From Nostoc sp. PCC 7120 = FACHB-418 (GTDB lineage: Bacteria; Cyanobacteriota; Cyanobacteriia; Cyanobacteriales; Nostocaceae): 32,000 bases of DNA. Location of the stretch: the NCBI RefSeq assembly GCF_000009705.1, contig NC_003272.1, positions 5,340,001 through 5,372,000 on the forward strand. Reading direction: 5' to 3'. Positions 10,286-27,668 of this stretch are shown here, in pieces. Both the position numbers and the translations under genes were made by a program. A model generated the notes under the pieces. That model searched no databases, was not told where the DNA came from, and saw only the letters and a list, made by a program, of their open reading frames with translations. Positions within the stretch are counted from its first letter, which is position 1, and each line of letters begins with the position of its first letter.

Positions 10286-10450
10286 AATATAGTTGACACT
10301 CTCCGCCCTATAAGTGCGGAGATTCTTCATTCATAGACCCAACTTGCTCACACAAGATTTCTCCAGCATGAGTAGAGGACGAATCTCCTGAAGCGTTCGG
10401 ATCATAGATCCAGGTTCCTACGTGACCCGTAGTACCCAAGGCTAGTTTCA
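10286..10450 (-). ncRNA. putative TnpB guide RNA (omega/reRNA) scaffold overlapping the tnpB 3' end
   Basis: The position is inferred from known TnpB biology. The hairpin TCTCCGCACTTATAGGGCGGAGA followed by GTGTCAAC lies at the expected 3' end. Extent and ends are not verifiable here. Confidence 0.35.
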
Positions 10451-11519
10451 GAATGTTAATCGCTGCGTTCCAATCTCTATCCATCACAAATCCGCATTCA
10501 CAAACATGAGTTCTTGTGGATAGAGATTTTTTGACTACTGCGCCACAATTAGAGCATTGGCTTGTTGTGTACGCAGGATTAACAGCTACAGTTATCCGGC
10601 CAAATTTCACACCGAAATACTCCAACCATTTTCTGAATTGATACCAACCAGCATCATTAATAGATTTAGCGAGACAGTGATTCTTAACTAAGTTTTTAAC
10701 CCTCAAATCTTCATAGGCGACCAAATCGTGAGATTGGATTACGCAACGCGCTACTCTCTTAGCGTGTTCTTCACGTTGCCTACTTATTTTGAGGTGTACT
10801 CGCCCTAATTTATTAAGGGCTTTTTTGCGATTGGTAGAGCCTTTCTGATGCCTTGAAACGCGCCTTTGTCTAAACTTTAGACGCTTCTCTCCTGTGCGAT
10901 AAAACTTAGGGTTAGGTTCTGTATGTCCGTTGCTATCGGTGTAGAACTCTTTTAAACCAACATCTAAACCAATGGTTTTACCAGTCGGTTGTGTTTCTAC
11001 TTTGTTATCTGCGCTAATCAGGAATTGAACATAATACCCATCGGCACGACGGACTAACCTAACTCGTTTTATCTGCTCCAATTGGTAGAAGTTTAAATTC
11101 CACGTTCCCTTGAGATTGAGTTTGCCAATACCTTTTTTGTCAGTAAAAGTGATTTGCTTTCTAGTTTCAGAAAGTGACCATCCAGAGGTTTTATATTCAA
11201 CTGAACGGTTGTTTTTTTTAAACTGTGGATAACCTTTCTTACCTGGAACAGACTTTTTACAGTTGTCGTAAAAACGAGCAATAGAACTATAAGCCCGTTC
11301 GATAGAAGCTTGGCAAGCACTAGAGTTCAAAGCCTTGACAAAAGAAAACTCATGTCTGAGAACCTTACTAAGACGATATAAGTCTTTCTGCCCTACACCT
11401 CGGTTATCCATCCAAAAACGAATAGCTTTGTTGCGAACGAATTGACAGGTTCTAATCGCCTCATCAATGGCTACATATTGAGTTGTTTTGCCTTTAGCTT
11501 TAAACTCTAAAACAATCAT
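10308..11519 (-). CDS. tnpB: RNA-guided endonuclease TnpB (IS200/IS605 OrfB)
   Basis: 403 aa from the ATG (MIVLEFKAKGK...). RuvC-like segments are present (IGLDVGLKEF; ...VAYEDL...; DRDWNAAINI). A zinc-finger CSNCG...CECG lies between them. Confidence 0.9.
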   Translation of the reverse strand: MIVLEFKAKGKTTQYVAIDEAIRTCQFVRNKAIRFWMDNRGVGQKDLYRLSKVLRHEFSFVKALNSSACQASIERAYSSIARFYDNCKKSVPGKKGYPQFKKNNRSVEYKTSGWSLSETRKQITFTDKKGIGKLNLKGTWNLNFYQLEQIKRVRLVRRADGYYVQFLISADNKVETQPTGKTIGLDVGLKEFYTDSNGHTEPNPKFYRTGEKRLKFRQRRVSRHQKGSTNRKKALNKLGRVHLKISRQREEHAKRVARCVIQSHDLVAYEDLRVKNLVKNHCLAKSINDAGWYQFRKWLEYFGVKFGRITVAVNPAYTTSQCSNCGAVVKKSLSTRTHVCECGFVMDRDWNAAINILKLALGTTGHVGTWIYDPNASGDSSSTHAGEILCEQVGSMNEESPHL

Positions 11520-11545
11520 TTTACGTGGACAAATCCTACGCAAAT

Positions 11546-15828: not shown

Positions 15829-15912
15829 CTGGGGGAGAGGTCAGAAAAGACTTGTCGAACTCACGTTAAAATAGAGTTAGGAAAGGTAGAATTTACTAGA
15901 TTAGGAAGTTCT

Positions 15913-16143
15913 ATGATGACTTTACAAGAAATTATTAATTCTATTGAAAGTTTGCCCACAGAAGATCAAGAGTATTTATTTGAGTTTCTTCGCCAGCAAA
16001 GAATTGAGAATCGACGAGTTGAAATTTTGGCTAATAGTCAGGAAGTAATGCAGGCTTTGAAAGATGGGACAGCAAAGAGAGGAAGCGTTGATGATTTGAT
16101 CGCTGATTTACTAGGAGACGATGATGGAAGTTGTCTGGAGTAG
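15913..16143 (+). CDS. type II antitoxin (partner of the downstream RelE/YafQ-like toxin)
   Basis: 76-aa acidic ORF overlapping the toxin ORF by 23 nt. The assignment rests on position and size only. Confidence 0.6.
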   Translation: MMTLQEIINSIESLPTEDQEYLFEFLRQQRIENRRVEILANSQEVMQALKDGTAKRGSVDDLIADLLGDDDGSCLE

Positions 16144-16405
16144 TGGATTTAAGCGCTCTTTCAAGAAAATTATCAAGAAAAAACCACAATTAAAGGATCA
16201 GATAGTTAAGGTATTAAGGCTTTTAGCAGACGACCCATTTACAACTTCTTTAAAGTCTCATAAGTTAACAGGAGATTTAGCTGGTTTGTGGTCTTGTTCT
16301 GTTACTTATGATTGTAGAATTATATTTACTTTCTCTGAGGATGAAAATTTGTTAGAAATGGTTATTTTATTGGTTGATATTGGTAGCCACGATGAAGTTT
16401 ATTAA
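16121..16405 (+). CDS. type II toxin, RelE/StbE/YafQ-family mRNA interferase
   Basis: 94 aa. It has SGFKRSFKKIIKKKPQL..., HKLTGDLAGLWSCSVTYDCRIIF and a C-terminal IGSHDEVY, which is the YafQ/RelE-type pattern. Confidence 0.75.
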   Translation: MMEVVWSSGFKRSFKKIIKKKPQLKDQIVKVLRLLADDPFTTSLKSHKLTGDLAGLWSCSVTYDCRIIFTFSEDENLLEMVILLVDIGSHDEVY

Positions 16406-16448: not shown

Positions 16449-17318
16449 TTATAAACCAGCTTCACTTAAAGCTCGGCTGAAAGCATCAACTAAATTGAGG
16501 TCTTCAGCCCATTGTGTAAGATAAGCATAATCTAAATTAAGCGCTTGTAATTTGAGTATTCCCAATACATCACGCCACTGTTTTTCTGATTGACTATGAC
16601 GACTCCATAACAACTTTTGTAAAATTGTATCTTCTGGAGAAGCTACCCAAAAAGGGGATATACCATCTAAATCAGGTAAAATGCGACGCGCCATCTGCGA
16701 TAATGCAAATGGTGAAGCATCTGTGATATAAAGATCAGCATTAGCAATAGTTTCTGTATGAGTAATGTTGAGCGTTTGCTCTCGACCTCGTTTTAATTCC
16801 TCAATTGCACCTACAGGACAATAATAGCCCGCAGTTTCTAATGTCACTACTAGTAAATCAATTTGGTCGGGTTGGATTTCTATCACCAAATCTAAATCAC
16901 GGGTTGAACGAGGCTCACCATGAATAGAACTAGCGACACCACCACTAACATAGTAAGGAATATTAATTGACTCAAAAATTTGGTGTAGTTCACCTGCAAG
17001 GGTAATTGAGTCTTGAATCCACATACTTTCATTAATACCTATTGGTTGGAAATCAGCAGTCAATTTATCACCTAGCACCGCACGCGTAAATATACACCTA
17101 ATTTCCTCTAAGGACGTATGGCGATGGCGAGATTTAATTCCTGCTAGACATAATTTTTTTATCCCACGTTCATGTGCAACAAACATTTTTATTCTTTGAC
17201 TTAGGGAAAGTTGCTGCAAACGAGTAAAAAAATAAATATCAGCATCGATATTTGTATCAGCTGCTTGTGGTTGGTAATTTTGCTTTATAGGTATTTGTAA
17301 GGATGGAGTACCAGTCAT
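16449..17318 (-). CDS. nucleotidyltransferase-fold (Pol-beta superfamily-like) protein, function unknown
   Basis: 289-aa ORF with SGGVASSIHGEPRSTRDLDLVIE, i.e. the G[GS]-x(9-13)-D-x-D minimal NTase motif. It starts 21 nt downstream of the GrpE-like gene on the same strand. Confidence 0.5.
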   Translation of the reverse strand: MTGTPSLQIPIKQNYQPQAADTNIDADIYFFTRLQQLSLSQRIKMFVAHERGIKKLCLAGIKSRHRHTSLEEIRCIFTRAVLGDKLTADFQPIGINESMWIQDSITLAGELHQIFESINIPYYVSGGVASSIHGEPRSTRDLDLVIEIQPDQIDLLVVTLETAGYYCPVGAIEELKRGREQTLNITHTETIANADLYITDASPFALSQMARRILPDLDGISPFWVASPEDTILQKLLWSRHSQSEKQWRDVLGILKLQALNLDYAYLTQWAEDLNLVDAFSRALSEAGL

Positions 17319-17339
17319 GATTTTTTCTGGCTGCTGTTT

Positions 17340-17924
17340 TTAATTCTGTTCTGATTTTGATGTAATAATTTCTGTGGGACGTAAAACTTTCTCACCCATG
17401 AGAAAACCTTGACGGACAATTTTTGTAATTGTCTGGTCTTCTACATCATTTCTAATTTCCCGGTCTACGACTCGACAGAAATTAAAATCGGGTTGGTCAC
17501 TCTGCAATTCTATCGGCAAAACTTGGCGCTTGCTGAGGACGCTGAGAAATTTACGATGGACTGCGGCTACAGACTTGGGTAAGCGCTGGAAAAACTCTGG
17601 GCTGGGGTCTGGGTTATTTTCTAGGTAATTGAGTAAGGCTTCGAGTGCGTCGGTAACTTCTAGGAGTTCTAAGAATAAATCTTCAGTATTGGCGGCGGTT
17701 TGAGTTTGTTGTTCTCGCAAGGATTGCTGGAATGAGGTATTTTGCTTTTGTAAGCTGCTAAATTCTTGGATTAACCAGTCCCTTTGTGCTTGAGTCAGAA
17801 GATAGCGGTTTTCGATAAATGTAGCTACATCTGGGGAAGATGTGGGGATTTCCGACTTTGTACCAAGGAATTTGGATTTTAGCCAATTGGTAACTTGGAG
17901 ATAAATTGAGGGTGAGTCAGACAC
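17340..17924 (-). CDS. GrpE-like nucleotide exchange factor
   Basis: 194 aa with a GTG start. The C-terminus ...QTITKIVRQGFLMGEKVLRPTEIITSK matches the GrpE beta-domain pattern (..qkGY.l.gRvlRpA.V.V.k). The start overlaps the J-like gene stop by 8 nt (GTGTCTGA). Confidence 0.65.
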   Translation of the reverse strand: MSDSPSIYLQVTNWLKSKFLGTKSEIPTSSPDVATFIENRYLLTQAQRDWLIQEFSSLQKQNTSFQQSLREQQTQTAANTEDLFLELLEVTDALEALLNYLENNPDPSPEFFQRLPKSVAAVHRKFLSVLSKRQVLPIELQSDQPDFNFCRVVDREIRNDVEDQTITKIVRQGFLMGEKVLRPTEIITSKSEQN

Positions 17925-18531
17925 GGGACATCTCTTTTGATAAATGAGGTAGAGTTTTGTTTGCCCAAGTTTGCACTTGGGGATGGGGATGATTCACTAA
18001 AATCTGGCAGAGTGCCACGGCTCTTTGTAATTGTCCACCTAGCTGATAAGCTCTAATTAGCCACATCTGGGCTTGGATATAAGCTTGAGTATGGCTGTCT
18101 TGACAGATGTGGCAGTAGTCTTCTAAATATTTTATGGCTTTCGGGTAACGTCTCTCTTGGCAAGCTGTGATACCCTCGCTTAAGAGTTCTGCTAGGGGTA
18201 TGTTTAAGGGTTCTCGTTCTTGGTTTTCTTCTTGGGTTGCTTGAGCGATCGCCTTTTCCAATCCATCAAATTCTGGCAATATAACTAAAGTGGGGGCGGA
18301 CTCTGCTAAGGCGGATAAGTCACTATATTTAAAACGTTTGATAGGAGGCAATATAGGACGTAAATAGTCAGCGATGATGCGTTCTTCTGGCTTCATCAAG
18401 CTTTTTTGGGCTTTCGCAATCACATCTACAGGATATTGCTTGCGCTTCATCGCCACTGCTACAGCTTTGGTAATCTCAGCTTTTGATGCTGCTTGAGATA
18501 TACCCAAAATATCGTAAGGATTCTGTTCCAT
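17917..18531 (-). CDS. J-like domain protein with C-terminal TPR-like repeats
   Basis: 204 aa. The N-terminus NPYDILGISQAASKAEITKAVAVAMKRKQYPVD...PEERIIADYL resembles a J-domain, but YPVD stands where HPD is expected. The C-terminus has TPR-like helices (YPKAIKYLEDY..., RAYQLGGQLQRAVALCQ). Confidence 0.65.
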   Translation of the reverse strand: MEQNPYDILGISQAASKAEITKAVAVAMKRKQYPVDVIAKAQKSLMKPEERIIADYLRPILPPIKRFKYSDLSALAESAPTLVILPEFDGLEKAIAQATQEENQEREPLNIPLAELLSEGITACQERRYPKAIKYLEDYCHICQDSHTQAYIQAQMWLIRAYQLGGQLQRAVALCQILVNHPHPQVQTWANKTLPHLSKEMSRV

Positions 18532-18544
18532 ATCTCACCTTTGT

Positions 18545-21274
18545 TCAACGGATATTTAGTCGGTGGTAAATTTCTTGATAATCTGGGTCATAAGGACAAA
18601 GTTCATAAACCCAACGACCTAATTGATGGACTAAATGAGTAGATAATGTTTCACTTTTAATTCCTCTAATCAAGGTCATCATGAAATAGTCACCCACATA
18701 GGAACGAATCGCATCGTATTGTGAGGACTGGGTGCGGCGGACAGCTTCTTCATAGCGATCGCGTTTGATGAGATGATGGATTTGATGTAGTTCTTGGCTA
18801 ATCAGATAGATTTCTTGGATGTTTGGCTCATCAGGACTAAGTTCATAAGCCCAACGACCTAAATCATAAATCTCTTCAAAGCCCACTTTTCGGGTCTTAA
18901 ATCCATCGACTAAAATATCTACACAAATTTCAGTGACTATATTTTTAACCTTAGGATGTCGGTTTTGTTTGGCAAAATTCACTGCTCCTTCCAGATTATT
19001 TTTATTTAAAAGTTCTTCAATTACTTCTACTGCTAATGCCACTTCAATTCGCTGAATTAGATCAATGACAATCGGATTATCAGCATCAATTAGTTTAATT
19101 TTCTCTAGTTCTTTAAGAGCTTTCTGCTTAGATATCTGTTTATTAGCAACTTGCTCTCTGACTTTTTCTGCTTTGTATTCAGCTAAATAATTTCTCGCCT
19201 TGGGACTGTCTAAAATATCGTACCAAAATTGGGCAAGAACTAAATGTTCATGGTCTTCGGAGATGTCTTGACGCTGTAATAAGCAAAGTCTATCTACTTC
19301 ATTTTGCCATTCTTTATTAACCTGAATTTCTGATTTTGCTTGCTTGAGTGGATTAATTGCCTCACGCCATTTATGCTGTTGTAGGTAATAGCATCCTTCA
19401 TAGTAAGCAACAAAGTTATTAGCAAATATTTCTAACTCAGAAATTGCTGGATTTATAGGTTTAAGTTTAATTGCTCTTTGGCTATCTCCTGCCACACAAG
19501 CTGCTACTGCTAATCCCCAATTTGTGTATAAGCAATGTAGAATTTTTTGGTTAGGATCTATTTGATTGAAATTATTGCTTTGGGCGAGAGCGAGATAATG
19601 ATTATAACAACCAGGAGTTAAAAATATATCGTTGATTTTTATTCCTTTGATTGGAGGCTGACCCATTATTTCTAGGGCTAAGGTTTCCAATCGCCAGCAA
19701 TCACGAAACTTTAAATAATTATCAATATTTTTATCTTTTATAGTATCAATAAACGTTTCCATCCTATTTTTTATTTGGTTAAATACTAAGTTGAAATCAA
19801 CAGGTTTGCTTCCCAGCCAAGGTACATCTTGAAGGTTGACATCTTTGTGGAGATTCGCTAAGGCTGTGGATAAGGAAATAATTAAATTTATGAGATGAGT
19901 TGAGTCCTTTTGAGCGTGATAGTAATTGGCTACTGCCCAATTGTGTAAATTAATAATATTAGGGTTGGCAATCCAATCATTTTCAGCTTGTTGGCTAATA
20001 ACTTTCCAGTGATATCCTTGCCAAACTGCTGCTTCAAGACGTGGCTGGATATGTTGTTGGAGATTTTCTTCTATTAACTTGTTAAAACCAAATTTTTGGG
20101 TAAATTCTGTACTAGCTATTTTAGCTTGTTCTAGATTTTCAGCCTTAACTAATTCTTCAATATTTTGTAGAGAGCATAGCCGTTGTCTTTGGCTGAGAAC
20201 TTTAAGAATTTCTCGTTGTTCACTGATTTGTGCGCCCGATAAACCTTGCCATTCTCGATAGGCTATTTGTAAATTTTCCTGTTGTGCATGAGCAAATCCC
20301 CGGAGATATGCCGCTTGTTCTCCCGGTAAATCTTCCAAGTAAGATAATGCTGTTTCCCAGTCTTGAATTTTAATTGTTACTAAGCCTAACCTGATGCGGC
20401 AATTAGTACTTTCTGGCAATAGGGATTCAGCATTTTCATATAAAGAAATAGCTGTGGGGAAATCACCAACTTCTTCTGCTGCTAAACCTCGGCGAAATAG
20501 TTCCCTACCTTTAACTAGTGATTTGAGTTTGTGTAGTAACTCACGTCCATCTGTGCGGGGAAATCTAACTAAAGCCGATTCTAAAAGGGCGATCGCTCCC
20601 CGTAGCTTTCCTTCCGTTTCCCCTTGTCGCACTCTTTGTAAACTCGCGGCGTACAGTTCTTCTTGTGGGACTTGCTGTGTAGCGGTAGCAATGGCTTGTG
20701 TTACAGCCTGTGTAGAGTAAAGTTGTTCAGCTTGCTGGTAAGTGGCGATCGCATTTTTAAAAAATAGATTTTCTGCCAGGGATTCGGCTTGCTTTACCAA
20801 TCCTTGGAACTGGTGGCGTTTCCGTAGTTCTTGTTGATATTGGTTAATTGCTTGCAATATTCTCTCATCGTGGAGAATCTTGCTACAACGCTGATAAATG
20901 GTAATGATATTTGCCAGGTTTGTGGTTTCCCAAGGATCGCCAGTATCTAGTTTGAGCAGAGTTTTAGCACTAGCAAGTTGTTTGTCAACCATCCCTACTT
21001 GTTTGCGCCATTCTTGTAATTGCTGAGTTAGTTGATTCACCAGCTTACCTAAAAGGATTTGGCAAATCAACCGTTCCCAAAAACCGGGTTTTCTCGACCA
21101 AAAACTCAAGGCTTTTTCGGCGATGGTGATGGCTTCCCGCAGGTGTTTTGTTTGGGCTAGTTGTGCGGCTTTTTGGCTCGCTTCCTTCGTTTGTGGTGCT
21201 TTCAGCCAAGCATCAACAATTCCTATTCCTAAATGATTCTTAGTTAATTTATTTAAGCTTTCCAGCAGGTTCAT
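18545..21274 (-). CDS. 909-aa all-helical TPR-like repeat protein (hypothetical)
   Basis: Long ORF. I took the start at the ATG that overlaps the LysM gene stop (TAATG). It has many TPR-like A/Y/L-rich helix pairs and a duplicated 80-aa C-terminal module. Confidence 0.7.
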   Translation of the reverse strand: MNLLESLNKLTKNHLGIGIVDAWLKAPQTKEASQKAAQLAQTKHLREAITIAEKALSFWSRKPGFWERLICQILLGKLVNQLTQQLQEWRKQVGMVDKQLASAKTLLKLDTGDPWETTNLANIITIYQRCSKILHDERILQAINQYQQELRKRHQFQGLVKQAESLAENLFFKNAIATYQQAEQLYSTQAVTQAIATATQQVPQEELYAASLQRVRQGETEGKLRGAIALLESALVRFPRTDGRELLHKLKSLVKGRELFRRGLAAEEVGDFPTAISLYENAESLLPESTNCRIRLGLVTIKIQDWETALSYLEDLPGEQAAYLRGFAHAQQENLQIAYREWQGLSGAQISEQREILKVLSQRQRLCSLQNIEELVKAENLEQAKIASTEFTQKFGFNKLIEENLQQHIQPRLEAAVWQGYHWKVISQQAENDWIANPNIINLHNWAVANYYHAQKDSTHLINLIISLSTALANLHKDVNLQDVPWLGSKPVDFNLVFNQIKNRMETFIDTIKDKNIDNYLKFRDCWRLETLALEIMGQPPIKGIKINDIFLTPGCYNHYLALAQSNNFNQIDPNQKILHCLYTNWGLAVAACVAGDSQRAIKLKPINPAISELEIFANNFVAYYEGCYYLQQHKWREAINPLKQAKSEIQVNKEWQNEVDRLCLLQRQDISEDHEHLVLAQFWYDILDSPKARNYLAEYKAEKVREQVANKQISKQKALKELEKIKLIDADNPIVIDLIQRIEVALAVEVIEELLNKNNLEGAVNFAKQNRHPKVKNIVTEICVDILVDGFKTRKVGFEEIYDLGRWAYELSPDEPNIQEIYLISQELHQIHHLIKRDRYEEAVRRTQSSQYDAIRSYVGDYFMMTLIRGIKSETLSTHLVHQLGRWVYELCPYDPDYQEIYHRLNIR

Positions 21275-21720
21275 TAAATATCCTCCTGGCAATGAGGAAT
21301 TTTCAACACCTGACCCACCTCTAGATAGTTTTCTCTTCCTATGAGTTGGGGGTTGGCTTGCACCATTGTTTGCAAAGAAACTCCCTGACCACACAATTTC
21401 TGAGCGATCGCACTGAGATTATCTCCCGCTTGAACTGTGTAGGTGGTTGGTTCTGGTGGTTTTTGGGGTGTAACAGGGCTTGGTTGAGTAATAACTACTG
21501 TATTTAACTGCGGTCGAGAAAATATAAAATTCGTCGCCACTCCCAGACCTATGGCAATAATTAGCAGCAACAGGGCGATTCTTAATGGCCACGGCGATTG
21601 AGTGGGGACTTGCGGTAACGCTTGCAGCATCCGAATTACACGTAAATCAGCATCACAATTGGGGCAAGTATCGCCTGTAATATCTTGGTAACTACATACA
21701 GGACAATTCATTTGCATCAT
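21274..21720 (-). CDS. zinc-ribbon / single-TM / LysM-domain protein
   Basis: 148 aa from the ATG overlapping the Hsp70 stop (ATGA). It has CPVC-x(10)-CPNC, a TM helix (WPLRIALLLLIIAIGLGVATNFIF), a Pro-rich linker, and LysM (YTVQAGDNLSAIAQKL...VGQVLKIP). Confidence 0.75.
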   Translation of the reverse strand: MMQMNCPVCSYQDITGDTCPNCDADLRVIRMLQALPQVPTQSPWPLRIALLLLIIAIGLGVATNFIFSRPQLNTVVITQPSPVTPQKPPEPTTYTVQAGDNLSAIAQKLCGQGVSLQTMVQANPQLIGRENYLEVGQVLKIPHCQEDI

Positions 21721-23930
21721 CGGCTGATTCCTGTAGCAATCATATTGCTCGGTAATTCCTGATTGAGCCAAAGTTTCACATCTGGTTGTAATTCTTGCCA
21801 CAAGCGATCGCTTTCTTGTCCATTACCATTTTCCATCGCTTCGAGTAGACGATAGAGTTTATCTGACATGGCGCTGGCTTGGGTGGGTGCAACTTGCCTG
21901 GCTTGGCGGATAGCTAACAAACTAGCTTGAATGACTTGGACTTCATTTGGTAGATTATCAAGTTCTCGTCTAGCATCTTCACTGTAAGATTCCATTCTCG
22001 ATAGGTCATGGGTATTAATTGCCCCTTGCAAATCTTGACTCAGCTTTTGTAATCTTTCCTTTTGTGGTTGAGGAATGAGAAAACCGCAGATTTGGACAAT
22101 GCGATCGCATTCATTCATCAGAGACTCCGCTTCCAAAGCTTCCTTAGACATGGAAACTTGGAATTTCTGCAAAGTTACTTGAGCGTCATCGCGTTTATCG
22201 ATGCGTTCTTCCTCAGTTTTAGGATCGATAATACCGTTAGCTAATTTGACTACTGGAACTGCTAACTTCAATGCTTCTTCTACCCCAAGTTGAGTTAAGT
22301 CTTGATGATTGAGTTCAGCGATCGCTACTTCTAGTTCCCTGTAAATTTTCTCATCCGAGCGACCCCGCGAAAATGTACAACTCACTCTTTCTGCCGGGTC
22401 ATTTTTTAGGGTGGCTGTCATTTTTAAAGCGCTATTTTTCTCGTCTAACTCCAAATTCACTAAAATTTCCGTCCCCTTGGGATAAACCTCGTTTAAACCC
22501 AACCACATATCCCCGATACTTTCTTGTTTATCGACCCCATCCAATTCTTCCCTCACCTGGTCAGGGCTAAAAAACTGGAAGTGAATTAACCGTTGTCCAT
22601 CAGCCACAGTTTTGAAGGTGTGGGATGTGATTACAGGCAGGATATCATTACGGTTAATCACTTTATAGCGATCGTCTAGCAACTTGATGTAGTAATCACG
22701 GGATACTGTTGTAACTTTATCTGTTTGCCCAGCCGCCACAATCGCCGCCCCTTCTGCCACCGCATACATCGGCCGCGGATGCAAAACCACCTTATTATTA
22801 CCAAAGGCTTCTTTAACTTTGCGTTGTACTAAAGGAATTTGGGAAGACCCCCCAACCAACAACACTATATCCACCATTTCCAAGTGATATTCTGCATCTT
22901 GTAAGGCGAGGCGGCAAATCTGCACTGAACGATCAACCAAGTCACTAATCATCGCCTCAAATTGCTGGCGAGTAATTTCTACTTCAATAGGAATGGCAAT
23001 ACCTAATTCATCCAGTAATTGAGTTGCTGGGCTAATCCGTGCTACTTGGGCGCTACTTAATTCAACCTTGGCACGTTCTACAGCCATTTTCAGGTCGGCG
23101 TTAAATCTTAGCCTTTGGTAATAAGGCATTTTGGCTATTAAGCCGTCAATATCCCCAATTTTCTCCTCCTGGGCAACTTGGGTTTTGACAAAGTTCATAA
23201 TTTGAGAATCGATGTCATCCCCACCTAACCATAAATCTCCCGCTTTTCCCTGTTCAATAAATGAAGTACCAGCTGCGGTAATCAGGGAAGCATCAAATGT
23301 ACCGCCACCAAAATCGTAAACTAAAATCGTCTTCACATCTTCGCTATCTGGCGAAAAACCATAGGATATAGCAGCCGCCGTCGGTTCTGGTAGTAATTCT
23401 AAAGGTGTCAGTCCGGCTTTGAGGGCGGCGGTACGGGTGGCGTAGCGTTGCTGGTCATTGAAATAGGCAGGAATCGTAATCACGGCTTGGTCGATTACTT
23501 CGTCTATCTTGCCAATTCCTTGACGATAAGCTTGGGCATTAGATACGACTTTTTTGAGAATTTCAGCCGAGATATCCTCTGGACTGTATTCTTGACCTCC
23601 TAGCCAAACCGCAATGCTGTTATCGGTTCCGTAGCTAGGTTCAGTAATTTTGTAACCGACCTCTAACCTTTGTTTTTTGACTGCTTGGTCACTAAAACCC
23701 CTACCTATCAAGCGCTTAATTGAAGCAATCACATTTTCTGGGTCAGCCCGTAACTGATTGTAAGCTTGATTTCCTACCAATAATTTATCCTGGTCATAGG
23801 CAACAAGCGATCGCGTTAATTTTCTATCTGGGGGTGTGTTGTCATTAGCTGTCACTACCTCTACTTCTGCTAACTTAAACGCACCAACAGAATTAGTTGT
23901 TCCCAAATCAATTCCGATTGCCTTACCCAT
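21717..23930 (-). CDS. divergent Hsp70-family ATPase (DnaK paralog)
   Basis: 737 aa from MGKAIGIDLGTTNS. Actin-fold motifs are intact (IDLGTTNS, DFGGGTFD, LLVGGSSQIP). No canonical hydrophobic (LLLDV-type) NBD-SBD linker motif is evident by eye. There is a long helical C-terminal extension. Confidence 0.9.
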   Translation of the reverse strand: MGKAIGIDLGTTNSVGAFKLAEVEVVTANDNTPPDRKLTRSLVAYDQDKLLVGNQAYNQLRADPENVIASIKRLIGRGFSDQAVKKQRLEVGYKITEPSYGTDNSIAVWLGGQEYSPEDISAEILKKVVSNAQAYRQGIGKIDEVIDQAVITIPAYFNDQQRYATRTAALKAGLTPLELLPEPTAAAISYGFSPDSEDVKTILVYDFGGGTFDASLITAAGTSFIEQGKAGDLWLGGDDIDSQIMNFVKTQVAQEEKIGDIDGLIAKMPYYQRLRFNADLKMAVERAKVELSSAQVARISPATQLLDELGIAIPIEVEITRQQFEAMISDLVDRSVQICRLALQDAEYHLEMVDIVLLVGGSSQIPLVQRKVKEAFGNNKVVLHPRPMYAVAEGAAIVAAGQTDKVTTVSRDYYIKLLDDRYKVINRNDILPVITSHTFKTVADGQRLIHFQFFSPDQVREELDGVDKQESIGDMWLGLNEVYPKGTEILVNLELDEKNSALKMTATLKNDPAERVSCTFSRGRSDEKIYRELEVAIAELNHQDLTQLGVEEALKLAVPVVKLANGIIDPKTEEERIDKRDDAQVTLQKFQVSMSKEALEAESLMNECDRIVQICGFLIPQPQKERLQKLSQDLQGAINTHDLSRMESYSEDARRELDNLPNEVQVIQASLLAIRQARQVAPTQASAMSDKLYRLLEAMENGNGQESDRLWQELQPDVKLWLNQELPSNMIATGISR

Positions 23931-24127
23931 GCTGAACCAAGATTTTTTTGTATAAATTGTTGATAGCAACCAAGCTTATACACGAGTAAAACCCATACTT
24001 ATTAAGGGTTTTCATGGATTACTTAGACTTTGCTCAACCAATGTTATACAAAATACTTGGAAACCAACCTCAGCAAAACTACTGTCAAACCTACAGGTTA
24101 GCAAAAGTTTATAAGCAGTGATAAGTG

Positions 24128-26402: not shown

Positions 26403-26484
26403 CAGTAATCGGTAATTGATAATTGGTAATTGGTAATTGTTACTGTACCCATTACCTATGACCCGTTACCCATTACCCATTACC
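26403..26484. repeat. STRR-like heptamer arrays in quasi-inverted orientation
   Basis: cagtaat cggtaat tgataat tggtaat tggtaat, followed by ...ttaccta tgacccg ttaccca ttaccca ttaccta. The two halves are imperfect reverse complements. Confidence 0.75.
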
Positions 26485-27584
26485 TAGAAAGAAATGATCA
26501 AATAATTATTTTGGAACTTTGCCCCAGTGATAGGTCTACCACTGAGTGCTGGAGGTAAGAAAATATTCCTTCGTTGGTCACCGGCTTCTACTGTTACTTC
26601 CGGCCCGTACTGGGTGAGTTTGACTTGTTTTTTATCAAATCCGGGTAAGAAGAGGCGTACCTGACGATTATGGGTGTCGATAGTTATTGGTTTAGGCGCT
26701 TGTTCGGCTTGTTCAACAAAATTGGGGAGGGCATCTATTAAAGGTTGCCAGTCACCTTTGGTAACGTCAGGAACAACAGTCACCGATAAGGGTGTAAATT
26801 CTGCCGATAGGTCGCCTTCTGTTTGTGAGGATACCTGAATTACACCACCAATGGTCAACCCAATTTGTTGAGCGCTACCCCATAGATAACGTACACTGAC
26901 AACTTCTAGAGGGTCTGCTGTAGTGACCAAGAAAGCAGCAACTCGCTTGGGGTCAGCCAATGCCTCTTTTCCCTTATCTAAGAAATTATTGACTTGATTA
27001 GTAGGTTGAGCAAAGTTATCTGCTGTCCAATTGACGTTGAAAAAGCTGCTAATTAACGGTTGAATCAAGGGTGATTCGGCTATAGTTTTACCTAAATCGG
27101 AGTTGACAAACAGTTGCCGAAAGCGCCGCACATACCAGCTTAAAGATTCTGGTAACCCCAACATCCGTAAGGTGAAAGCGTCACCTGTGCCATCGTAGAC
27201 GATCGCATCATATTTACCACTGGCATCATATTCACGGATCGCATTCAAAGCTAAAGCGCTGTCCATCCCCGGTAACACTACCAGTTCTTGACCATACACC
27301 TCTTTGATAATGGGCGTGCGGAGATATTGCGCCTCAAGTTTTTTTACTTCTTCCCAATTGCGTTCCAGCAGCACAGAAGATTGAAACTGTACAACTTCTA
27401 GATTGGGGGCAATTTGCTGGGGGTCAGGGGTTAGGGTTTGCTCTAACAGGAGGGGCAATACTGGTTCTGCCAGTCCTGCTAGAAGTACCCGCTTGCCTTG
27501 ACTTGCCAATAACTTGGCTGCGGCGATCGCTATTTTTGTTCGCGCTACACCACTTTTGCCCAAAAATGTCAATATCAGGGCCAT
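26484..27584 (-). CDS. ArsA/Get3-family protein with degenerate P-loop and C-terminal HSP20-like domain
   Basis: 366 aa from MALILTF. GKSGVARTK stands where GKGGVGKT[TS] is expected. The C-terminus (VRLFLPGFDKKQVKLTQYGPEVTVEAGDQRRNIFLP) resembles the ArsA-associated alpha-crystallin-like domain. Confidence 0.75.
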   Translation of the reverse strand: MALILTFLGKSGVARTKIAIAAAKLLASQGKRVLLAGLAEPVLPLLLEQTLTPDPQQIAPNLEVVQFQSSVLLERNWEEVKKLEAQYLRTPIIKEVYGQELVVLPGMDSALALNAIREYDASGKYDAIVYDGTGDAFTLRMLGLPESLSWYVRRFRQLFVNSDLGKTIAESPLIQPLISSFFNVNWTADNFAQPTNQVNNFLDKGKEALADPKRVAAFLVTTADPLEVVSVRYLWGSAQQIGLTIGGVIQVSSQTEGDLSAEFTPLSVTVVPDVTKGDWQPLIDALPNFVEQAEQAPKPITIDTHNRQVRLFLPGFDKKQVKLTQYGPEVTVEAGDQRRNIFLPPALSGRPITGAKFQNNYLIISF

Positions 27585-27668
27585 TATCTTGATTTCCAAT
27601 TACCGCAGGTCTTGTCAATTCCAACTTAACACTAGGCAAATACTCTTAGCTTCTACCTAGAGTTCTTT

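Follow-up and report, generated by a model that had tools for sequence, protein, structure and literature searches.

A conserved five-gene cassette in Nostoc sp. PCC 7120 encodes an atypical Hsp70 with its own GrpE-like, J-like, solenoid and LysM partners

The 32,000-nucleotide stretch of the Nostoc sp. PCC 7120 genome that we analysed (hereafter the window; NC_003272.1, positions 5,340,001 to 5,372,000) carries five closely packed genes, encoding an atypical Hsp70, a small zinc-ribbon/transmembrane (TM)/LysM protein, a large tetratricopeptide repeat (TPR)-like solenoid, a J-like protein and a GrpE-like protein. We find these five genes conserved as a unit across cyanobacteria, and we propose that this translationally coupled, vertically inherited module forms an Hsp70 machine with a specialised role, tethered to both the cytoplasmic membrane and the cell wall, a reading to which we give about even chances. 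As usually taught, Hsp70 mechanism rests on ATP hydrolysis that is stimulated by the HPD motif of a J-domain and relayed via a conserved hydrophobic linker. In the family described here, which extends to several phyla, the Hsp70 keeps its ATPase, its peptide pocket and a GrpE of its own, both the linker and the partner’s HPD loop are lost, and the genes are firmly joined to those for a presumed peptidoglycan anchor and a 909-aa presumed scaffold, which would mean either a different form of Hsp70 control or a new envelope-linked task, be it in cell-wall and septum biology, in motility and secretion, or in immunity. The module is present in Anabaena/Nostoc PCC 7120, a standard genetic model, so deletions, tagging and biochemistry should be straightforward. 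Our analysis also corrects the annotation of the locus: the solenoid is no metallopeptidase, the first gene is no ordinary dnaK, and an adjoining nucleotidyltransferase (NTase)-fold gene is a passenger.

A five-gene module conserved across cyanobacteria

The atypical Hsp70 gene comes first (21717..23930, on the minus strand like all the genes listed here; 737 amino acids (aa)), followed by the gene for the zinc-ribbon/TM/LysM protein, the candidate membrane anchor (21274..21720; 148 aa), that for the TPR-like solenoid, the presumed scaffold (18545..21274; 909 aa), the J-like gene (17917..18531; 204 aa) and the GrpE-like gene, which has a GTG start (17340..17924; 194 aa). The NTase-fold (AbiEii-like) gene, which lies outside the conserved module, is next (16449..17318; 289 aa). 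Direct reading of the sequence shows that the Hsp70 stop overlaps the LysM start (ATGA) and that the LysM stop overlaps the solenoid start (TAATG, with AGGAGG upstream). The solenoid and J-like genes are 13 nt apart, a gap that contains AGGTGA, the J-like stop overlaps the GTG start of the GrpE-like gene as GTGTCTGA, and 21 nt separate the GrpE-like and NTase genes. Of the non-coding gaps that flank the five genes, just one is sizeable, a 197-bp stretch upstream of the Hsp70 gene (23931..24127, minus strand), presumably the promoter and 5′ untranslated region. A consensus scan found no promoter-like site in it, no CIRCE-like inverted repeat was seen there by eye, and across the operon the consensus scan gave no excess of internal promoters or terminators.

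A search of species-representative genomes with a solenoid profile yielded 77 loci, all cyanobacterial, which we compared by tblastn with all of the window proteins. The Hsp70, LysM, solenoid, J-like and GrpE-like genes were found in the same order and on one strand in 68 of the 77; among the nine exceptions, seven were truncated by contig ends, one was a Cronbergia locus described below and one was a solenoid fragment. Median intergenic distances in the cyanobacterial loci were -4, -4, 15 and -8 nt. Flanking genes are shared by at most 17 of the approximately 70 loci analysed, and we therefore take the unit to be exactly five genes. A first-pass annotation, made from the letters and open reading frames (ORFs) of the window, had described six minus-strand ORFs with the junctions given above, and all six ORFs and every junction match the sequence. 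It had further proposed that the six form a dedicated operon, with conserved synteny of the LysM and TPR genes with the Hsp70 gene as one test. That synteny is present in the 68 loci, and the proposed unit stands for the Hsp70, LysM, TPR, J-like and GrpE genes; as a six-gene unit it fails, the sixth gene having no counterpart in any of the 77 loci or in the two closest genomes.

The loci are mostly from Nostocales, and others come from Spirulina, Waterburya, Geminocystis, “unicellular cyanobacterium SU2”, Chroococcidiopsidaceae and Aliterella. Since unicellular and non-Nostocales cyanobacteria carry the module, it is not tied to heterocysts or filaments, and a restriction to Nostocales or filamentous forms is not supported, all the more as the module is recognisable in other phyla. 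All five genes are under purifying selection (dN/dS, the ratio of nonsynonymous to synonymous substitution rates, is 0.05-0.27). Among the five, constraint is weakest on the solenoid and LysM genes, which evolve ~2-4x faster than the Hsp70 gene. The module occurs once per locus retrieved, its composition is fixed and protein identities drop with taxonomic distance, a pattern that makes its inheritance apparently vertical.

The Cronbergia exception (Cronbergia sp. UHCC 0137, locus L044, 8054-12427) is a LysM-solenoid pair with no Hsp70, J-like or GrpE gene within 10 kb, placed directly after a gene for a Ser/Thr kinase-GUN4 fusion. That the pair survives alone suggests that it is a sub-unit in its own right.

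The Hsp70 lacks the canonical interdomain linker

The product of the first gene is an Hsp70 (Pfam HSP70, E = 1e-97) that bears the database name “DnaK-type molecular chaperone” in PCC 7120 (100% identical entry) and “Hsp70 family protein” elsewhere. It nevertheless scores far under all NCBIfam DnaK/HscA cut-offs, with 310 bits against NF001413 (cut-off 648), 304 against TIGR02350 (823), 282 against NF009947 (1002) and 259 against NF009946 (1019). An exhaustive phmmer search with the window Hsp70 across 1.84 billion representatives recovered full-length orthologs down to ~46% identity and, beyond these, other Hsp70-family proteins, mostly of 720-830 aa. The best 150 representatives (235-929 bits) all outscored E. 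coli DnaK (232 bits). Judged by these comparisons, the protein is not a DnaK1, DnaK2 or DnaK3 ortholog.

The window Hsp70 aligns to residues 1-519 of E. coli DnaK and retains K70, E171 and the DxGGGTFD motif (DnaK numbering). In canonical DnaK the hydrophobic linker between the nucleotide-binding domain (NBD) and the substrate-binding domain (SBD) is 389-VLLLD-393; in our alignment the segment LLLDVT is opposite a gap, and the window protein has DKVTTVSRDYY in its place. Of the positions that line the DnaK peptide pocket, I401, F426 and Q433 are unchanged and the others are substituted as T403->L, M404->L, A429->V, V436->I and I438->F, such that the pocket stays hydrophobic and DnaK-like. Taken together, these alignments show a protein that should be competent for both ATP hydrolysis and peptide binding, though linker-less. 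The AlphaFold2 (AF2) model (predicted local distance difference test score, pLDDT, 81) consists of a nucleotide-binding domain, a beta-sandwich and a C-terminal helical domain, the last of these being ~200 residues long, with ~nine helices in residues 525-722, and modelled with pLDDT >90. At the extreme C-terminus is a conserved tail, LPSNxIxTG(L/I)xR. We considered whether this tail motif is common to several phyla and rejected the idea, as the motif is clear solely within the cyanobacterial clade.

Two further substitutions relative to E. coli DnaK are R167->E and N170->P, R167 of DnaK being the partner of the HPD aspartate of DnaJ. The residue at this position, E178, is invariant in 41 cyanobacterial Hsp70 orthologs; in most of the distant Hsp70 relatives the position is R or K, and we therefore rejected co-variation of R167->E with HPD loss as a family-wide rule.

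A J-like protein without an HPD loop and a divergent GrpE

The J-like protein has a barely detectable relationship to DnaJ in Pfam (PF00226, residues 4-24 alone, E = 0.0033, 17.9 bits vs a cut-off of 27.8). A profile of its family that includes distant members, however, has J-domains as all of its best matches in the PDB (E = 8e-5 to 3e-3) and matches E. coli DnaJ with E = 8e-5, with a 10-residue gap opposite YHPDRNQGDK of DnaJ. On this basis we consider the protein a probable J-domain derivative with a deleted HPD loop. The NPYxILGV motif and the helix II/III/IV signatures are retained, and the domain is conserved in 68 cyanobacterial orthologs, in most of which the His of the HPD site is Tyr, the local sequence being (Y/H)P(V/I)D. 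The loop is 10 residues shorter than that of DnaJ, and the HPD tripeptide is also absent from all six distant homologs. The probably J-domain-derived part of the protein spans residues 1-60, and its C-terminal half is TPR-like.

The GrpE-like protein is matched by Pfam PF01025 with E = 1.6e-17 (64.1 bits vs a gathering score of 25.8) over profile positions 36-165 of 165, and it falls under every NCBIfam equivalog cut-off for housekeeping GrpE. Its gene lies downstream of the Hsp70 gene in all of the complete cyanobacterial loci. These results agree with the first-pass annotation in most respects: the Hsp70 lies outside the DnaK1/2/3 groups, its ATPase motifs are kept, its hydrophobic linker is missing and its C-terminus is long and helical, and the GrpE and J-domain matches support a dedicated GrpE-like factor and a J-like partner. 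As to the domain calls themselves, HSP70, LysM and GrpE are upheld by Pfam, and those of TPR, DnaJ and NTase are weak or sub-threshold there.

The LysM membrane protein and the solenoid

The 148-aa protein begins with a CxxC...CxxC zinc ribbon, followed by one TM helix (approximately residues 44-68, from the hydropathy peak), a proline-rich spacer and, at the C-terminal end, a LysM domain (PF01476, residues 94-142, E = 7e-11, 42.4 bits vs a gathering score of 20.9). The four zinc-ribbon cysteines are each at least 90% conserved in 68 orthologs. With the LysM domain C-terminal to the TM helix, the ribbon would be cytoplasmic and the LysM domain periplasmic. The LysM region also gives a match to TIGR03505, FimV_core, that is well under its cut-off (E = 0.0013, 18.5 bits vs 43.45).

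The 909-aa protein has weak TPR matches in Pfam, and AF2 predicts an all-alpha solenoid of ~45 helices with a mean pLDDT of 88, whose best Foldseek matches are TPR scaffolds: IFT-A, Ski3, Ctr9, Naa15, Tom70 and subunits of the APC. Our homolog search returned 131 proteins at E <= 1e-5, and the source names among the 120 listed are all cyanobacterial. The best identity in that search was 87%, with no fully identical PCC 7120 entry, though contigs identical to the window and carrying the 909-aa gene are on record; an omission from the database or its index seems the likelier cause than biology. Many NCBI and UniRef entries carry the name “peptidase M, neutral zinc metallopeptidase site” for this protein; because the window solenoid has no HExxH motif, and the motif is found in just 5 of 51 homologs, we regard this name as spurious.

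Relatives outside the cyanobacteria

As judged by gene order and, in the loci scanned, by profile matches, Desulfonema magnum and a set of unassigned metagenome contigs have recognisably the same cassette. The D. magnum locus (L092) encodes an Hsp70, proteins of 339, 713 (TPR) and 95 aa, and GrpE, and L082 is laid out similarly (Hsp70, 366 aa, 693 aa (TPR), 91 aa, GrpE). A LysM protein follows the Hsp70 in three further loci: L079 (then 1071 aa, 155 aa, GrpE), L084 (then 750 aa, 92 aa, GrpE) and L080 (then 640 aa, GrpE, 297 aa). The shortest version is L085, with Hsp70, 139 aa, 300 aa and GrpE. We scanned six distant loci (L078-L085) with profiles built from the cyanobacterial proteins. All six gave the ~60-aa J-like domain (E = 8.7e-5 in L085 and E <= 2e-13 in the other five); GrpE was found in five, the zinc-ribbon/TM/LysM protein in four and the solenoid in three, and in several lineages the J-like domain is fused to helical-repeat proteins.

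Named members of the wider Hsp70 clade come from Gammaproteobacteria (Ca. Kentrum, Thiorhodococcus), Desulfonema and Thermodesulfobacteriota, and none of the 10 distant Hsp70 relatives that we examined has a DnaK-type linker. In several proteobacterial and desulfobacterial relatives (P0134, P0397, P0486, P0131, P0133, L082 and L092), a zinc ribbon of the form CxxC-x(9-11)-CxxC is inserted exactly at the NBD-SBD linker; a similar ribbon heads the TM-LysM protein in cyanobacteria, and L082 has both. The 773-aa clade Hsp70 of Ca. Kentrum sp. (L093) stands alone, without cassette partners, among housekeeping genes (a SurA-like rotamase gene, rsfS, htpG, hda and mutS).

One relative has a different neighbourhood. 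P0125, a full-length Hsp70 relative with 50% identity whose cluster includes a member named Sericytochromatia, is encoded on a Sericytochromatia-like metagenome contig (L078; 3-3009). Upstream are a gene for an Hsp70(NBD)-vWA fusion and a DO-GTPase2 gene (28 bits, cut-off 27); downstream are genes for a 417-aa solenoid homolog and a 63-aa J-like protein. The locus also encodes Big_2 proteins and has no GrpE gene. Because P0125 sits beside a DO-GTPase2 gene, the Hsp70 clade is evolutionarily connected to the DO-GTPase theme discussed below.

The sixth gene is a passenger

The NTase gene gives a sub-threshold match to Pfam AbiEii (E = 0.019, 15.3 bits vs 22.5) and has a G-x-x-x-D-x-D type motif. 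By tblastn it is in none of the 77 related loci. Alignment to the Nostoc parmelioides locus, whose proteins are 87-97% identical to those of the window, shows the gene within ~930 bp inserted after the grpE-like stop codon and before a yafQ-type toxin gene of convergent orientation, and a Trichormus variabilis-type genome lacks it as well. Plasmids of Nostoc and Calothrix carry homologs with 64-74% identity; we examined the surroundings of one of these, in Nostoc sp. TCL26-01, where the homolog adjoins integrase and HNH genes, and a Herpetosiphon homolog comes after an XRE regulator gene. Given its absence from the 77 loci and the nearest genomes, and its relatives on plasmids, we conclude that the gene is a passenger of the PCC 7120 lineage, probably co-transcribed with the module.

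From its sequence, the passenger is probably an orphan AbiEii-like gene. It resembles the AbiE-type (AbiEi/AbiEii) systems in its NTase-fold motif and weak AbiEii match, and in the XRE regulator that precedes the Herpetosiphon homolog; it differs from them in falling below the Pfam threshold and in having no AbiEi alongside in the window, there being none between the grpE-like and yafQ-like genes. The convergent gene (16121-16405, plus strand) encodes a YafQ/RelE/ParE-type toxin (Pfam YafQ_toxin, E = 4.5e-12), and a small ORF just upstream of it (~15890-16120) is its likely antitoxin. Relatives have 4-10 nt between the grpE-like stop and the yafQ-type gene, which is precisely where the NTase insertion came in.

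Comparison with known systems

The closest functional pictures are the membrane-tethered Hsp70 motor of mitochondria and, in Nostoc and Myxococcus, the dedicated DnaK systems by which polysaccharide export is coupled to pilus motors. The mitochondrial presequence-translocase motor consists of mtHsp70, the GrpE homolog Mge1, Pam18, the HPD-less J-like protein Pam16 and the membrane scaffold Tim44. The module would resemble it, as a functional analogy only, in combining a membrane-tethered Hsp70, a GrpE-type factor, an HPD-less J-like subunit and a scaffold, whereas its scaffold and anchor are non-homologous to those of the motor, it is without an HPD-bearing J partner and no translocon is nearby. 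For the LysM and solenoid proteins, a second analogy is with the polar landmarks FimV and HubP, which have a periplasmic LysM domain, one TM helix and cytoplasmic TPRs. The same LysM-TM-TPR logic appears in the module, split across two translationally coupled genes; unlike FimV/HubP, the module adds a zinc ribbon and an Hsp70/GrpE engine, and the FimV_core score is, as noted, far from the cut-off.

Dedicated envelope-linked DnaK systems have precedents (PMC9239167, PMC12288463). In Nostoc punctiforme and Synechocystis, polysaccharide secretion is linked to the type IV pilus motors by the DnaK1-DnaJ3-GrpE set (McDonald et al., 2022; PMC9239167), which is similar to the module in being a cyanobacterial Hsp70 set for an envelope machine, with a TPR-containing J-type partner and GrpE. 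DnaK1, however, is a true DnaK paralog that is encoded next to pilBTC and uses the housekeeping GrpE (PMC9239167), whereas the module’s Hsp70 fails the DnaK cut-offs, its GrpE-like gene is its own and divergent, its J-like protein is HPD-less, it has LysM and solenoid partners, and no pil genes are near it in the window.

A further set of systems shares more of the parts list. As described by Kaur, Burroughs, Iyer & Aravind (2020, eLife; PMC7159879), the GAP1-N2 DO-GTPase conflict systems comprise one or two DO-GTPase genes plus GAP1 and are found mainly in Actinobacteria and Firmicutes; in ~14% of them, Hsp70 and GrpE occur along with a protein that has a DnaJ or TPR fusion, and placement at the membrane is through zinc ribbons, TM segments and peptidoglycan-binding domains. 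The likeness to the module is thus considerable: an Hsp70 and GrpE of its own, a J- or TPR-bearing partner, and zinc ribbons, TM segments and peptidoglycan-binding domains near the membrane. The difference is that the window and the cyanobacterial loci are without a DO-GTPase, GAP1 (for which no dedicated model was used), FNIII or a variable effector. The portions of the paper that we consulted mention no cassette of LysM, solenoid and HPD-less J-like proteins, and those of its supplement contain no Hsp70, GrpE or LysM entries.

Several other identities were tried and rejected. The All4981-All4983 operon of PCC 7120, in which the gene for a filament-forming TPR protein is co-transcribed with two upstream genes (Springstein et al., 2020; PMC7002697), had seemed to match from where TPR3-4 lie and from how the operon is described, but it is not our locus: each of the four published reverse-transcription PCR primers has at least 6 mismatches in the window, and the second overlap in the window is TAATG, not ATGA. 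The Myxococcus StkA/StkB/StkC system is different, with a 540-aa DnaK homolog together with an SCP2-like and a small protein, and the Hsp70-like CnuD proteins of CoCoNuT systems have an unrelated architecture, with degenerate ATPase motifs and McrBC partners. We found no experimental or specific comparative description of the five-gene module in the open-access literature. The first-pass annotation, which did not recognise a described system here, was therefore right in part: we found no paper on the module, but the Hsp70, GrpE and DnaJ/TPR theme is described in PMC7159879, and one close relative of the Hsp70 has a neighbourhood of that kind. The module is a dedicated Hsp70 system, of which others are already known, and the five-gene cassette itself appears to be undescribed.

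A working model and its rivals

We picture the proposed membrane- and wall-tethered machine as follows. The LysM protein, inserted N-in/C-out, would grip peptidoglycan outside the membrane and present its zinc ribbon in the cytoplasm, where together with the solenoid it would form a split version of a FimV/HubP-like envelope landmark. The J-like adaptor, and perhaps also the LPSNxIxTG(L/I)xR tail of the Hsp70, would dock the Hsp70 to this landmark, and the Hsp70 would bind one or more specific client segments at the envelope, hold or remodel them and release them. Nucleotide cycling may be governed mainly by the module’s own GrpE-like factor rather than by HPD-stimulated hydrolysis.

Several points weigh against this model. 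The membrane topology and all of the contacts within the complex are inferred. The R167->E substitution is confined, in the sequences compared, to the cyanobacterial clade and so does not track HPD loss across the family. Rather than recruiting the Hsp70, the HPD-less J-like protein might act as its inhibitor or be no more than a decoration. The TPR and LysM genes evolve faster than the rest, as a sensor component might behave, and P0125, with a DO-GTPase gene and an Hsp70-vWA fusion next to it, connects the clade with proposed conflict systems.

The last two points also feed the main rival, that the module is a conflict or immune system, a GTPase-less descendant of the GAP1-N2 DO-GTPase theme, in which damage to the envelope or the presence of invader proteins would be sensed by the LysM/TM protein and the solenoid, and nucleotide-dependent assembly by the Hsp70 would set the response threshold. 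We consider this unlikely, though to be taken seriously. Besides the P0125 locus, with its DO-GTPase2, Hsp70-vWA fusion, Big_2, solenoid homolog and 63-aa J-like genes, the parts shared with the systems of PMC7159879 speak for it, as does the 3′ flank in PCC 7120, which has gathered an AbiEii-like gene and a yafQ-type toxin gene. The immediate genomic evidence points the other way. A Pfam search of 26 window ORFs, each 94 aa or longer, gave no DO-GTPase1 or DO-GTPase2 (three ORFs of 100 aa or more close to the window’s 3′ end were outside it), the Pfam scan of the window, in which no dedicated GAP1 model was used, turned up no GAP1, and the Pfam and PADLOC scans of the window gave no FNIII protein or effector domain. 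Nor is there a conserved extra gene (DO-GTPase, GAP1 or effector) in the flanks of the ~70 cyanobacterial loci. PADLOC has no match in the window and PHROGs no system-level match; IMG/VR viral contigs have no relatives of the solenoid, and the Hsp70 matches there are generic alone (<=39% identity). The neighbours of the module are housekeeping genes (a chlorophyll synthase-type UbiA, DUF1499, DoxX, an ArsA-like gene, PAPS reductase and others), not a defence island, much as the related Hsp70 of Ca. Kentrum lies among housekeeping genes. Fixed composition, one copy per locus, apparently vertical inheritance and purifying selection likewise count against a conflict module.

A sharper sub-hypothesis is that the machine is a translocation or insertion motor, an analogue of the mitochondrial one, which would pull or hold polypeptides at an envelope channel or secretion system. 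The parallel with the Hsp70, Mge1, Pam16 and Tim44 list and the retained substrate pocket are what one would expect of such a motor, but no channel or secretion gene is conserved beside the module, there is no equivalent of the HPD-bearing Pam18, and the case is by analogy alone; we hold it to be very unlikely. We give next to no credence to a functional unit of six genes with the NTase as an integral enzymatic component. In favour of such a unit, the NTase gene follows the GrpE-like gene on the same strand after 21 nt, with no predicted terminator between them, yet its absence from all 77 loci, N. parmelioides and the T. variabilis type already refutes it as a conserved component, and its relatives occur either on plasmids, with integrase and HNH genes as neighbours, or behind an XRE regulator. 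The view that the locus is an ordinary spare DnaK/DnaJ/GrpE stress set with incidental LysM and TPR neighbours, to which the database names of the Hsp70 might lead, is almost certainly wrong: the DnaK scores of 259-310 bits are far from cut-offs of 648-1019, the best 150 relatives outscore E. coli DnaK, the linker and the HPD loop are both missing, and the neighbours are conserved in the 68 loci.

Returning to the membrane- and wall-tethered machine, a more far-reaching version of it would make the module the founding example, and a genetically tractable one, of a widespread group of bacterial Hsp70 machines that work without an HPD J-domain or a hydrophobic linker. These would combine an HPD-less adaptor and a dedicated GrpE with a LysM/solenoid landmark, would be a bacterial counterpart of the mitochondrial import motor, and would have been recruited independently into DO-GTPase conflict systems in other phyla. 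We think this generalisation distinctly unlikely as it stands.

Other features of the window

Two genes elsewhere in the window deserve mention. A TnpB/IS605 OrfB-type gene (10308-11543, minus strand) encodes OrfB_IS605 and Cas12f1-like TNB domains. The gene at 26484-27599 (minus strand), which adjoins the UbiA-family (chlorophyll synthase-like) gene and is unrelated to the module, encodes an ArsA/Get3-like ATPase with a C-terminal HSP20-like domain.

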